From: Protoeuglena noctilucae
Taxonomy: Eukaryota
Assembly (NCBI GenBank): GCA_958009085.1
Contig: OY253672.1
Location: 1,550,001 to 1,614,000, forward strand
Length of the DNA stretch: 64,000 nucleotides
Direction of reading: 5' to 3'
Of this stretch, positions 20 to 63,664 are shown piece by piece. Within the stretch, counting starts at the first letter, position 1. Each line of letters starts with the position of its first letter. The translations under genes and the position numbers were made by a program. The notes beneath the pieces were generated by a model. That model had not been told where the DNA came from, ran no database searches, and saw only the letters and a program-made list of their open reading frames with translations.

Positions 20-3000
20 GGCGAAGGAGGAGATCGAGTCCAAGATGCGTGCCGTGGAGTCGGACCTGGCTGCCAAGGCGGCGGCGCTTCACGTGGAGCA
101 GGAGCGGGCGGTGGAGATGGCGCGGAGGCACGAGGCCATGGTCCCAAAGGAGGACGCCGCCAGGGTGGAGGCGAGGGGGGTGGTCGCTGATGTTGTCTGT
201 TGTTGCACTGATCGCAATCACCGCTTCCTTGGTCTCTATCAACAAACGCACCTTGCTCCCCGTCACCTCTCCGCATCGGTGCCGGTCGCCGCCCACCATG
301 CATCGACTGCAGTCACGAGTGCTTCTCTCTGTCGCGTGACTGGCCCCGTGCCTCCTTCGCCGCAGGAGCGCGCCCGTTCTGCCGAAGAGGAACTGCGCCG
401 CGTGGAGGAGCGACTGGTGGTGGTGCAGCGGCAGGCGGACGACGCCCACGCGGCCGCGTCTCAGGCCGAGGTGCAGTCCACCGCCGCCACCGCCGAGCTC
501 CACCAGCTGCGGGCGGCGGTGCGGGAGATGGCGCAGCGGTCGGACGCATCGATGGCCGTCGCCAGATACACGGAGGAGGTGGTGGGGCTGCGGCAGGAAC
601 AGGCGCTGCTTCGGTCGCAGCTGACGCGCAGCGAGAGGGACCGGGAGCGCCTCGTCCACGCCAACCTGTCCCTGGAAAGGAGCATCGCGCAGGTGAGGGT
701 TGAGGAGAGGGTGCTTGGCAGTCGAGGTGTCGACGGCAACCCACAGGGTGTCAACTGCTGACCTATGTCGCTGTCTAAGCGGGGTGTCTAAGCGGAGTAC
801 TGTCAGTACCTTAGCGGGAGTTGTGACTGTACCCAGAAGGTGAGCCCTGTCGTCACATCATCACTCTCCTTGCCCCGCAGCACATGCACGAGACGGACGC
901 GCTGCGTGCCAAGCTGGTGGAGACCAAGCAGCGTGCCGTGGGGGCGGAGGCGCGGCTGGCGTCGCTGCGGGCTTCGTCGGTTGAGCCGCACCGCGCGGAG
1001 CGGTGGGCGAGGGCGGCGGCAGACGCGCGCAGGCGGTGCAAGTGGATGGGCGAGGCCATGGACGCTCTGCGCGAGCAGGCGAGGGCGGGGAGCACGATGT
1101 GACATGCGGGATTTGCCTCACGCAGCATCTGCCTTATCCCAAGCAATGCTCACCTTAAGCGCGCTCACACGCTGCAAGCGAACGTGATCCCAAGCAACGC
1201 TCACCTCGCTGCAACCAAGGCTGTCCTGCGTGCTAATCCCGGCCTTACCTCTCCCGCCTGTTCGATCGCAGGTCGTGACGTGGGCGATGCGCGTGGTGGG
1301 CAAGGAAGAGGCGGCGGATGCGGTGCTGTACGCCAAGTCGTTGCAAACAGTGACGGAATCCGAGGCCAAAAAGGAGGCGGTGCGGCTGCGGGAGCAGCTT
1401 GGCCGAGAGAAACTCACCCGGACCAAGGCGGAGAGGCGAGGGGGGTAGGGGAGTGGCACAGCACGTTGCCACAGGGAGGGGCGTAGCACGATGCCGGGAT
1501 GTTTCACAGTGCATGTTGTTGCATAGGCTATAACTTGCTTAGCGCATGCCCTATGCGCGTGCGGCGTCCCTCCTCCGCACACGCTGACACCAGAGCACGT
1601 TCCTGCAGGGAGCGCATGGTGCTGAATCAGAAGGCCGACTTCTTGTCGCACGTGAACGGGGAGCTGGAGGAGCGCATCGAGGAGTTGGAGAAGGGCGCGT
1701 TGGAGGAGTCGGAGTCGCTGGAGAGGGCCCGGGAGGAGGCGCAGGGGCGAGCGGACCGCGCCGACGCCGAGGCCGAGGCACTGAGCCAGGAGGTGGGTGG
1801 GGACATGGGTGGGGACAGGAGCGGCAGCGGGAGCAAGGGATATGTTATATGTTCTATGTGTTTCTTATAAATATTGCATTTTGTCGGATTTGGGTTTTCG
1901 ACAGAAAGTCCCTCCAAGCCACGTGTTGTCTGCAGCAGTCACACGATTCGTGCTGACACCCGCGTGTGTGTGTGTTACCCTTGCAGGTGGTGAAGCTAAA
2001 GAAGGAGGTCACGTCGCTGGAAGCCAAGCTGTCCGACGAGCAGATGTCGGGGATGCTGCTGAAGAGGGTCCGGGAGGACGCGCGGAGACAGGAGACGGGA
2101 GGGGCGGACGCGGCCGCCATGAGGCGAGGAGCGCACGGGCCAGCACGTGCATCTGCAATCGGCCCGAAGTCAAGCCTGACTCTGCTCTCACTAGTAGTAC
2201 CTATTCTCACTAATAGTACCCACCAAGAGTGTGGCAGAGGCAGCACCCGCCACCCGTTCACCTCCCACCCACGCTCCTCGCAGTGCCATGGAGCGTGACG
2301 CTATGCTAGAGCAAGTGGAGAGGCACAAGATGGTGCGGATGGAGCTGGAGGAGGCCAAGACGGCGCTGGAGGCCGCCACGGAGGCCCTGCGAGACCGGGA
2401 CGAGCAGATCCTGCAGCTGGCGGCGGACCGGGACCGACTGGGCGCCTTGGCAGCGGCGGCGGCCGCGTCAGCCCGGTCCTACGACGCAGCGCCGGGGCTG
2501 TCGTCCCGCGCGGCTGCGGCCGGCCCCGCGACGCCCACCACGCCGCGGCGGCGGGGCGCGGGAGGGGCTGCGGGCGGGGCCGCAGGCGGTGCGCTGTCGG
2601 GTCACGGTGCCGAGGCGGCTGCGGCGGAGATTGACCGATTGGAGGCGAAGGTCCGGGAGCTGCGGGGCGAGGTGGAGAAGCTGCAGCGGGAGCGGCAGAC
2701 GCAGCGAGAGCACGCGGCGAGGGAGGTGGCGGAGCTGCAGCGTCGCCTGACCGACGCGCAAGAGGAGCGGGCACGGGTGGAAGCGCGGCTGGCGGCGGCA
2801 GAGGCACTGCCTCGGGGCAATCGGGGGCGGAGCGGGAGCGGGGCGGCGACGGTGAGTGGGGGTAGTGGGAGCGTGCAGGGCTGACCGGGGTATGGGCGCT
2901 GCGTGGTGGCGAGCGTGTGTGGTAGCGAGGGTGCGTGGTGGTTGTGTGCAACACCCGGCGCTCCACCAGACGCCCCTGGCTGCACGGAACGGAACTCTGC

Positions 3001-61372: not shown

Positions 61373-63664
61373 ATGCACGCCCTTTCATCCATTCTCTTTG
61401 CCCGCCAGCCCGCCGGCCTCAGCGCGTTCCGCGCCGGCGGGCATGGACACCCTTCTCTGCCATGCCCGAAGCTGAGGTGGGAAGCTCGGATTCGCCCGCG
61501 CGCTGCAGCAGTCGGGACGAAGGAGCCCAGCAGCCCGCCCCGCAACCCGGCCCCGCCCCCCGCGCGTAGGCGTCGGACCTGGGCGTCCGCTAGCGCAGCG
61601 GGAACCCAGCAGAAGTCGGGTCAGGGGAAGGCAGCCGCGAAGGCCGAGGAGGCGGTGACGCCCAAGAGCGAGGACTTCAGCCGGTGGTACCTGGACGTGG
61701 TGCGTATGTGCGACTTGGCCGACTACGGGCCCGTCAGGGGCACGATGGTCATAAAGCCGTACGGATACGCGCTGTGGGAGGGCATCCAGCAGCACCTCGA
61801 CCGACGCTTCAAGGCAAGCTGCCGTCCCGAGCGCGCAGCCCCTGCTCCGGGCACGAGACCCGCCCCTGCCAGCCATGTCCTTCCCCCGCGTTGCAGGAGA
61901 CGGGTCACCAGAACTGCTACTTCCCCCAGCTCATCCCCTACTCGTTCATCGCCAAGGAGGCAGACCACGTGGAGGGCTTTGCCCCCGAGCTGGCCCTGGT
62001 GACCAAGGGGGGTGGCAAGGACCTCGAGGAGCCCCTGGTGGTGCGGCCGACATCCGAGACCATCGTCAACCACATGTTCGCTCAGTGGGTCCACTCGTAC
62101 CGGTGCGCGCCACGCCATGCAGGCGCACTGGACTGTCAGGGTCAGTCGCGCCACACCCGGCAGAGGCTGAGGCTAGATCCGTGACTGACTGTGCCCGTGT
62201 TGTTGCTTCCCAGGGATTTGCCGCTCAAGCTCAACCAGTGGTGCAACGTGCACCGGTGGGAGATGCGCACGCGTCCGTTCGTGCGCACGCTCGAGTTTCT
62301 GTGGCAGGAGGGGCACACGGCGCACGCCACGCCAGAGGAGGCGGAGGAAGAGACGTTGCAGATGCTCAAGGTGAGACGCAGGCAGAGGGGGGCATGGTCG
62401 TATGTGTGGGTCACGACGCGACGTGTGGCATCGCTCGCCACATGATGAACAAGCCTTTGGTTCAACACTCCCCCACCCCGTGTGTCCTTAGATCTATGAG
62501 GAGTTCGCCCGCGACGTGGCTGCTCTCCCCGTGGTGGCCGGTCGCAAGTCCCGCATCGAGTCTTTCGCGGGTGCGGTGCGGACGTACACGATCGAGGCGA
62601 TGATGGGGGACAGGCGGGCGCTGCAGGCGGGGACGAGCCACAACCTCGGCGACAACTTCGCCCGGGCATTCGGCACGCAGTTCCAGGCGAGGGGAGGGTC
62701 TTGGGCCGTGGCTGAGAGACCCGGGTGCATCTGAAGAGAAAGCCCCGTTTTGTGACTGTTGTGGGACTGTTGTGGGACTGTTGTGTGACTGTTGTGGGAC
62801 TGCGTGGCTGCGTTCCAGGACCAGGACGGGGAGCTGCGTCACGTGCACCAGTCATCCTGGGGGGTGTCGACGCGGATGGTGGGCGGCATCATCATGGCGC
62901 ATGGGGACGACAAGGGCCTGCGCCTGCCCCCACGCCTGGCGCCCATCCAGGTCGTCATCGTCCCCATCGTCAAGAAGGACGCGGACAGGGAGGCGGTGGA
63001 GGGAGCAGGCGAGACTGAACGCGAGGCATGGGAGAGGCTTCCATGTGTCGAGGCCTGCCACGGGTGCACTCTGCTTGCGAGGCGTGTCAAGTCGTCAATG
63101 TCGCGTTACCCCTCCCTTCCCTCCTCCCTCACAGCTCGGCAGCTCTGTGCAGCGGCGGAGGCGGCTGGTCTGCGCGCGCGCGTGGACGACCGCCCTGACC
63201 GCTCCCCCGGTTGGAAGTTCAGCGACTGGGAGATGCGGGGGGTGCCGGTGAGGGTGGAGGTGGGCCCGCGGGACGTGCAGCAGGGGACGTGCGTGGTGGC
63301 GCGGCGGGATCGGCCGGGGAAGGAGGGAAAGGAGGCGGGGGTGCCAATGGAGGCGGGGGCGTTCGTGGCGCACGTGCGGGGGGCGCTCGACGGCGTGCAG
63401 GCGTCTTTGTTCGAGGAGGCGCGGGCCTTCCGCGATGCCAACATCGTCGACGTGGCCAGCTACGACGAGCTGGTGCGTGCCGTGGGCGAGGGCAAGTGGG
63501 CGCGGGGCGGGTGGGCAGCCAGCGATGCGGACGAGCGGCGCGTGAAGGAGGAGACGGGCGGCACGCTGCGGTGTTTCCCCTTCGAGCAACCCGTGGGGCC
63601 CAAGACGTGTTTGATGACAGGGAAGCCCGCGGAGGAGGTGGCCATCTTCGCCAAGGCCTATTGA
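61373..63664 (+). CDS. Prolyl-tRNA synthetase, organellar (eukaryote/archaeal-type)
   Basis: Transit peptide, then [66 protein letters not shown] and SWGVSTR; C-terminus FAKAY*. Confidence 0.96.
62752..62802 (+). repeat. 12-bp tandem repeat (GTGGGACTGTTG)-like x about 4 in a ProRS intron
   Basis: Directly visible. Confidence 0.85.

Follow-up and report, generated by a model that had tools for sequence, protein, structure and literature searches.

Frequent GC-AG introns with a consensus donor context in a GC-rich window of the Protoeuglena noctilucae genome

Introduction

U2-type introns that begin with GC instead of GT and end with AG account for about 1% of the introns of animals and plants. 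Are there really as many as 19 of them in a single stretch of 64,000 nucleotides (nt) of Protoeuglena noctilucae DNA (contig OY253672.1, positions 1,550,001 to 1,614,000; the whole stretch is called the window below), and, if so, what permits them? A first-pass annotation made from the sequence alone had listed 19 GC donors, each preceded by exonic AG, had put them at a fifth or more of the introns of the window, and had proposed a relaxed recognition of donor position +2, compensated by the exonic positions -2 and -1 and possibly driven by GC pressure or by an altered splicing machinery. Here, these donors are compared with RNA contigs, with protein homologues and with the predictions of our own gene finder. 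The presence of unusually frequent GC-AG introns in the window is confirmed: independent verification comes from RNA for two of the 19 sites and from homology for another seven, none is refuted, and ten (171, 1079, 1436, 2124, 24004, 36870, 37879, 47163, 57939, and 59818) are present in the gene models only.

Some very GC-rich algae have already been described as having abundant GC-AG introns, which bears out, as regards the kind of genome, the suspicion of the first-pass annotation that the trait might have been reported. The available part of the survey of 61 species by Iwata and Gotoh (2011; BMC Genomics 12:45, PMC3033335) gives GC-AG shares of 1.3% overall, 39.6% in Aureococcus anophagefferens (2100/5308 introns; 69.5% G+C), 22.2% in Micromonas pusilla (831/3743; 65.9% G+C), 7.7% in Chlorella NC64A (1611/21048; 67.1% G+C), 2.7% in Micromonas RCC299 (52/1907; 64.1% G+C), 2.4% in Volvox carteri (457/18839; 56.0% G+C), 2.4% in Ostreococcus lucimarinus (13/549; 60.4% G+C), and 2.0% in Chlamydomonas reinhardtii (85/4210; 55.2% G+C). 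It ties the excess to high G+C content without taking this as the whole cause, calls the origin an "enigma", and reports a standard 11-nt 5' end of U1 in Aureococcus and M. pusilla. The accessible portions of further sources describe 14-17% GC-AG introns in a pelagophyte pangenome (preprint, 10.1101/2024.10.30.620910), introner elements with GT and GC donors in Pelagomonas (preprint, 10.1101/2021.10.25.465678), and GC-AG-dominated introner-derived introns in dinoflagellates (review, PMC11282704); that of a plant survey (PMC6310983) contained nothing further on algae.

Results

Verification of GC-AG introns by RNA and by protein homology

The donor motif is present as listed, exonic AG being followed by GC at 19 of 19 positions, with GCGAG at 18 of them and GCAAG at 61814 (Table 1; introns are named by the position of their donor, and a slash marks the cut). 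A check with spliced RNA that allows GC-AG, as the first-pass annotation had proposed, was run on positions 1-20000, to which contigs of the RNA runs X1, X2, and X4 and of the DNA run X5 were aligned. Eight joints within 4688-8333 are given by one X1 contig of 2694 nt together with X4 contigs, and six of them are GT..AG. The other two appear in both X1 and X4. Each has a stated ambiguity, within which a single placement yields GC..AG, namely the cut at +3 for joint 5180/5345 (the intron 5184-5347) and the cut at +2 for joint 6924/7051 (the intron 6927-7052). The minus strand contributes two further joints, 8623-8728 and 9346-9618, both GT-AG. Among the joints listed, GC-AG introns are therefore two of the ten that RNA shows, the remaining eight being GT-AG, and the DNA run X5 shows none of these ten joints. 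The introns 171, 1079, 1436, 2124, 16321, and 18593 lie in the stretch compared with RNA and have no verdict among the joints listed; none of these joints falls in 1-4688 or 12000-20000, where coverage is low and the RNA is evidence neither way. Indirect support exists for intron 2124, as a piece of the contig of X1 record 1 starts at 2282, the predicted acceptor plus a 2-nt AG ambiguity.

For the tests by homology, homologues were fetched with single-exon queries and the spliced models were then aligned to them. In the dynein heavy chain gene, Pfam AAA_6 positions 1-19 close the exon upstream of intron 16321 and positions 21-327 open the exon downstream, and the junction ITPLTD/RCYMTL is gapless against eight of nine dynein homologues, the ninth (P0363) being unalignable there. 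At 18593, no indel occurs against nine dynein homologues, in a region that is only moderately conserved. The junction SLNLNT/ETGRLSARRPNLQNQP at 40901 is gapless against 12 homologues of the organellar DNA polymerase, and the alignment of 12 homologues of the organellar prolyl-tRNA synthetase (ProRS) shows conserved sequence and no gap at the junctions 61814, 62687, and 63009. An intronless ProRS homologue on the metagenome contig L001 matches the spliced model over residues 13-493 in an unbroken piece of 481 residues with 82% identity, across five junctions; three of the five introns in this part of the ProRS gene are GC-AG. Splicing at a nearby GT or retention of the segment, which the first-pass annotation had named as evidence against its sites, has refuted none of the 19.

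The ProRS homologue on L001 (positions 3080-4522, on a contig of 73% G+C) lacks all five introns of the window gene, which points to a sharp difference in intron density between these relatives. A ProRS intron of L004 was also considered for comparison and set aside as uninformative, being GT-AG and at another position.

Site-level coding log-odds were computed for 18 of the claimed introns. They are positive upstream in 18/18, negative in the intron interior in 18/18, and positive downstream in 17/18, the exception being 37879 (-0.05). Intron 171 gives +0.41 upstream, -0.49 inside, and +0.35 downstream; its length is a multiple of 3 and it holds no in-frame stop. The same two properties are found in intron 24004, where a CCCH domain begins four residues past the junction. 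The ambiguity that had been conceded for 1436 persists: an in-phase GT lies 9 nt downstream, in a poor context with A at +3, a base seen there in 0/63 modelled GT donors. The exon that follows 57939 opens the match to the kinase profile. The protein around 36870 and 37879 aligns poorly and is unconserved among Lon homologues. The least certain site is 47163, which is dropped by the gene finder at a penalty of 4 and for which a stop 11 nt into the candidate intron gives an equally simple model.

Frequency of GC-AG introns in the window

Introns were modelled by our own Viterbi gene finder, which uses codon log-odds together with donor and acceptor weight matrices blind to donor position +2 and trains itself iteratively; a first pass, trained on the dynein open reading frame alone, had failed to find most genes, and the iterative training took its place. 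Greedy strand resolution lost the real genes 23124-25471 (+) and 59552-60950 (-), as spurious 5' exons overlapped their neighbours, and a limit of 650 nt on intron length restored both. The finder recovers nine of the ten introns shown by RNA and, with introns limited to 650 nt, predicts 19 of the 19 claimed sites. Run freely it is over-permissive and yields 52 GT and 34 GC introns. With GT, GC, GG, and GA competing and a penalty of 4-6 nats on every non-GT donor, it uses 62 GT, 17-18 GC, 2 GG, and no GA donors. The GC-AG share of the introns in the window is then about 22%, in agreement with the earlier estimate of a fifth or more.

Decoy dinucleotides fall away when the donor context is strict. 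In the class AG/GxGAG, the finder uses GT 20-22 times, GC 16-17 times, GG 0-1 times, and GA not at all, and the Viterbi score gained by allowing GC (270.6) compares with 32-119 for seven decoy dinucleotides. The four heptamers themselves are of comparable frequency on the two strands together (36 occurrences of AGGTGAG, 30 of AGGCGAG, 23 of AGGGGAG, and 16 of AGGAGAG); the thresholds of a test for coding sequence up- and downstream of these heptamers proved too strict, and the occurrence counts alone were used. The GC-AG introns are spread over at least ten genes, on both strands and along the whole window.

The model of the kinase gene (54740-58965, minus strand) is poor, as even a high penalty does not remove the GG decoys at 55541 and 56768, and 55580 is a GC candidate of the non-strict kind. 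Non-canonical introns, mis-assembly, or failure of the model could each explain this.

Context of the GC donors

The two kinds of donors differ in the surrounding positions. The full core AG/GYRAG, i.e., A at -2, G at -1, a purine at +3, A at +4, and G at +5, is present in nine of nine verified GC donors versus seven of 22 verified GT donors (Fisher p=0.0008), a comparison that is small (9 vs 22) and the only one free of circularity. In these genes, a GT donor can be preceded by CG, GG, TG, or AA and can have C, T, or G at +4/+5. Of the modelled donors, 17/19 GC versus 21/63 GT have the core, and this comparison is partly circular because the GC set was partly selected by the same weight matrix and the penalty favours strong donors. 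The compensation is thus supported as not being confined to the exonic positions -2 and -1; it includes +3 to +5. Among the modelled donors with a perfect core, 17/38 (45%) are GC, and the interiors of the introns contain C at 0.331 and T at 0.201; position +2 might thus be close to unconstrained once all other donor positions match the consensus.

Position +3 is G in 62/63 modelled GT donors and in 18/19 GC donors, so that donors in the window start almost invariably with GTG or GCG, unlike the mixture of A and G at +3 in most eukaryotes.

In other respects, the modelled GC introns resemble the GT introns: median lengths are 160 and 168 nt, pyrimidine fractions of the tract are 0.75 and 0.74, and acceptor position -3 is C in 20/20 and 58/63, respectively. 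U12 introns are recognizable by a U12 donor box and a U12 branch box. Assignment of the GC introns to this type was rejected, as their donors are all GCGAG or GCAAG and a loose U12-like branch pattern occurs in 1/20 GC and 0/63 GT introns.

An all-against-all BLASTN comparison of the 83 modelled introns gave 86 match rows (E<=1e-3) that pair one intron with another. Those inspected that involve GC introns, 40 rows, are short, pyrimidine-rich stretches of low complexity, and no sequence family with shared ends was found among the GC introns in the rows inspected. When the 20 GC introns are lined up, their likeness ends straight after the first 5-6 bases. A common tandem repeat of the type CCCCACTGCCACC, 96.6% identical over 59 nt, occurs in the introns 35110-35385 (minus strand, Lon gene) and about 39937-40138 (minus strand, organellar polymerase gene). 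The search for small nuclear RNAs (snRNAs) in the 64-kb window gave 0 Rfam matches.

Gene content and relatedness

Gene identities were assigned by Pfam on 98 modelled exons (Table 1). The G+C content across the window, in windows of 4 kb, is 0.616-0.729. The only assembly gap, of 200 N, is situated at 38436-38635, just 5' of the modelled start of the Lon gene, and makes the 5' end of this gene and the status of intron 37879 uncertain.

Table 1. GC-AG introns and genes of the window with the basis of each assignment
Feature	Position	Strand	Basis and remarks
GC-AG intron, 195 nt, coiled-coil gene, donor AG/GCGAGG	171..365	+	model only
GC-AG intron, 193 nt, coiled-coil gene	1079..1271	+	model only; retention gives in-frame stop 21 nt in
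GC-AG intron, 173 nt, coiled-coil gene	1436..1608	+	model only; ambiguous
GC-AG intron, 160 nt, coiled-coil gene	2124..2283	+	model
GC-AG intron, 164 nt, coiled-coil gene	5184..5347	+	RNA-verified
GC-AG intron, 126 nt, FKBP-type isomerase gene	6927..7052	+	RNA-verified; following exon matches FKBP_C
GC-AG intron, 294 nt, dynein heavy chain gene	16028..16321	-	homology-verified
GC-AG intron, 133 nt, dynein heavy chain gene	18461..18593	-	alignment
GC-AG intron, 105 nt, ankyrin/CCCH zinc-finger gene	24004..24108	+	model only
GC-AG intron, 220 nt, Lon protease gene	34253..34472	-	homology-verified; gapless against 11 homologues
GC-AG intron, 313 nt, N-terminal part of Lon	36558..36870	-	model only; in-frame stop 9 nt in
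GC-AG intron, 115 nt, 5' part of Lon	37765..37879	-	model only; weak
GC-AG intron, 241 nt, organellar family-A DNA polymerase gene	40661..40901	-	homology-verified
Candidate 3'-terminal GC-AG intron, 89 nt, Q/G-rich coiled-coil gene	47163..47251	+	model only; least certain
GC-AG intron, 119 nt, just 5' of kinase domain	57821..57939	-	model only; stop 36 nt in if retained
GC-AG intron, 92 nt, ING-like gene	59727..59818	-	model only
GC-AG intron, 83 nt, ProRS gene, donor AG/GCAAG	61814..61896	+	homology-verified; junction LDRRFK/ETGHQN
GC-AG intron, 132 nt, ProRS gene	62687..62818	+	homology-verified
GC-AG intron, 126 nt, ProRS gene	63009..63134	+	homology-verified; junction AVEGA/ARQLCA
Long coiled-coil gene	1-6133	+	gene model
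FKBP-type isomerase gene	to 7404	+	Pfam
Dynein heavy chain gene	7581-21817	-	Pfam; 13 introns modelled
Ankyrin/CCCH zinc-finger gene	23124-25471	+	Pfam
Chlorophyll a/b-binding protein gene	27414-28512	+	Pfam
Rrp15 gene			Pfam on modelled exons
SnoaL-like gene			Pfam on modelled exons
Lon protease gene	32235-38121	-	Pfam
Organellar family-A DNA polymerase gene with 3'-5' exonuclease domain	39433-43929	-	Pfam
Q/G-rich coiled-coil gene			gene model; holds 47163
MYND/F-box/WD40 gene			Pfam on modelled exons
Protein kinase gene	54740-58965	-	Pfam
ING-like gene	59552-60950	-	Pfam
Organellar prolyl-tRNA synthetase (ProRS) gene	from 61610	+	Pfam; 5 introns in the part within the window

In the homologue searches with single exons as queries, the closest database proteins are green-algal, with 60-76% identity, and the highest protein identities in the databases overall are 73-82%. 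These database searches gave no near-identical protein of Micromonas, Chlorella, or Aureococcus; no protein of the same species was found in them or in a representative search; and a metagenome scan gave no near-identical DNA, its top match being L001 with 82% protein identity. In a tree of the single gene ProRS, the window and L001 group outside Chlorophyceae plus Trebouxiophyceae and near Tetraselmis, which would weakly suggest a position outside these two classes and is too little to name a lineage. Sampled words of positions 1-10000 are present at 31-59% in marine metatranscriptome runs.

Two features of the transcripts concern the FKBP gene. The contig of X1 record 2, whose joints are also found in X4, connects the end of the coiled-coil gene without interruption to the FKBP gene on the same strand (window positions 6022-6510), the coiled-coil stop being at 6131-6133 and the first ATG of the next open reading frame at 6366, 232 nt downstream. 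Possible explanations are a bicistronic or read-through transcript and the joining of overlapping untranslated regions by the assembler. The same contig extends beyond the FKBP stop (7402-7404) and covers the last dynein exons in antisense (window positions 7272-8333), and the convergent FKBP and dynein genes, about 176 nt apart as the dynein gene ends near 7581, overlap or abut at their 3' ends.

Depth summed over the contigs of the DNA run X5 changes from about 26 (1-8333) to about 68 (8305-12363), 86-113 (12007-16008), and about 50 (16239-20000), and 24 of the 44 contigs placed on positions 1-20000, with the repeat 16061-16238 skipped, are merely 95-99% identical. The steps in depth and the identities suggest diverged alleles or paralogous copies of the dynein gene.

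Discussion

We regard it as probable that the GC-AG introns of the window are ordinary U2-type introns, tolerated only in otherwise consensus donors and generated by GC-biased substitution, with no need for an altered splicing machinery. C at +2 is accepted only where -2, -1, +3, +4, and +5 all match the consensus (AG/GCGAG), a context that would preserve enough pairing with U1, and later with U6, to make up for the lost pair at +2, and GT donors in the same genes could afford mismatches at those positions. GC-biased substitution, be it mutation bias or biased gene conversion, would convert T at +2 to C, and selection would purge the C only from donors that are weak at their other positions; a change in the machinery would not be required. 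Of the compensation proposed in the first-pass annotation, the stronger donor context stands and the restriction to positions -2 and -1 does not. GC pressure, its suggested driver, is supported by context, that is by the 62-73% G+C of the window and by the tie to GC-rich algae made in the available part of PMC3033335.

Several points weigh against this reading. Ten of the 19 sites rest on a finder that makes false non-GT calls: under the same matrix, decoys offered singly are used 20 times (GG) or 15 times (GA), and decoys are used 13 times at zero penalty with all donor types competing. Four GC calls of the finder turned out to be wrong, i.e., 7907, which an RNA contig crosses contiguously, 34674, which inserts six residues relative to Lon homologues, 40142, where the true donor is the GT at 40138 with an acceptor near 39937, and 32234, which fuses Lon to the SnoaL gene; all four are non-strict GC donors. 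A contig of run X2 (18195-18755) spans intron 18593 unspliced with 0 differences. X2 mostly leaves GT introns unspliced as well (436-887, 4288-4972), and its retention of 18593 is therefore uninformative on GC introns specifically. To these points are added the circularity of the modelled and the small size of the verified comparison of donor contexts, as well as the frequency sample, which is one 64-kb window with about 15 genes, so that the share applies to the window alone. Finally, GC-biased substitution and pairing with U1 and U6 are our inferences.

Position +2 might also be effectively free, wherever the five other core positions are consensus, through a lineage-specific way of reading the 5' splice site (for example by U1C, Prp8, U6, or snRNA modification), which we consider fairly improbable. 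If it were true, this intron-dense alga would offer a natural system for the enigma of GC-AG abundance formulated in 2011.

It seems unlikely that the splicing machinery of the lineage was altered to accept C at +2, by a U1 variant that pairs with this C or by changes in U1C, Prp8, or U6, the high share then going beyond mere tolerance and being an adaptation to, or a consequence of, that change. In favour of such an alteration are the share of about 22%, which greatly exceeds the published values of 2.0-2.7% in C. reinhardtii, Volvox, Ostreococcus, and Micromonas RCC299, and the failure of G+C alone to predict the share in Micromonas RCC299 (64.1% G+C, 2.7%) and M. pusilla (65.9% G+C, 22.2%), and Iwata and Gotoh themselves, in the part of their article available, leave the origin of the abundance an enigma (PMC3033335). 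However, the perfect context at GC donors is the plain prediction of compensation and would be unnecessary if C at +2 were specifically recognized, and the same source reports standard U1 5' ends in two GC-AG-rich algae.

That the window is unrepresentative and the genome-wide GC-AG share merely mildly raised is quite unlikely in our estimation: the small sample of 64 kb speaks for it, and the unclustered occurrence of GC-AG introns in at least ten genes on both strands of the whole window speaks against it.

The possibility that many of the GC donors are artefacts of gene modelling, with real transcripts using a nearby GT, retaining the segment, or ending there, appears very unlikely. It draws on the over-calling of non-GT donors by the finder, on the simple alternatives to 47163 (the stop 11 nt on) and 1436 (the in-phase GT), and on the introns 171 and 24004, whose lengths in multiples of 3 without in-frame stops would allow retention. 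Against it stand the independent verification of nine of 19 sites with none refuted, the 0-1 decoys versus 16-17 GC donors in the strict motif class, and the coding signal, which changes from positive upstream to negative inside at 18/18 sites and is positive again downstream at all but 37879.

A mobile introner family in which each copy supplies the GC donor, so that AG/GCGAG would be shared by common descent, is known in kind from the partly available reports on Pelagomonas (10.1101/2021.10.25.465678) and dinoflagellates (PMC11282704) but is scarcely credible as the source of the introns here, because the GC introns have no common sequence beyond the donor, the inspected matches between introns being just of low complexity and divergence setting in after 5-6 bases, and because several lie at junctions within deeply conserved motifs of old genes.

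For annotation, gene predictors which forbid or heavily penalize GC donors would mis-model about one in five introns in this organism; a run of our finder restricted to GT kept 21 gene models versus 13. The confinement of GC donors to a perfect context lends support to a simple model in which the strength of the 5' splice site acts as a threshold while substitution is GC-biased. G+C content is not the whole story, because the two Micromonas species differ in the figures available from PMC3033335.

With this window, an intron-dense green alga is added to the few GC-rich algae in which GC-AG introns are known to be abundant. Like the GC-AG introns of animals and plants, those of the window have GC..AG ends, a stronger consensus elsewhere in the donor, and normal acceptors and pyrimidine tracts, but they are about twenty times more frequent. 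With the pelagophyte introner elements, they share the high GC-AG proportion in a GC-rich marine alga, whereas they differ in lacking a sequence family or shared ends. The closest likeness is to the GC-AG-rich algae as described in the available part of PMC3033335: a GC-rich algal nuclear genome (0.616-0.729 G+C, a range that covers the window only, versus 65-70% genomic G+C), a share of about 22% within the window that is of the order of that in M. pusilla, and similar lengths of GC and GT introns. The window differs from them in coming from another organism, in its intron-dense genes, with 13 introns in the dynein gene and five in the ProRS part, and in a strict AG/GCGAG context that is quantified here and was not encountered in the available part of that survey.

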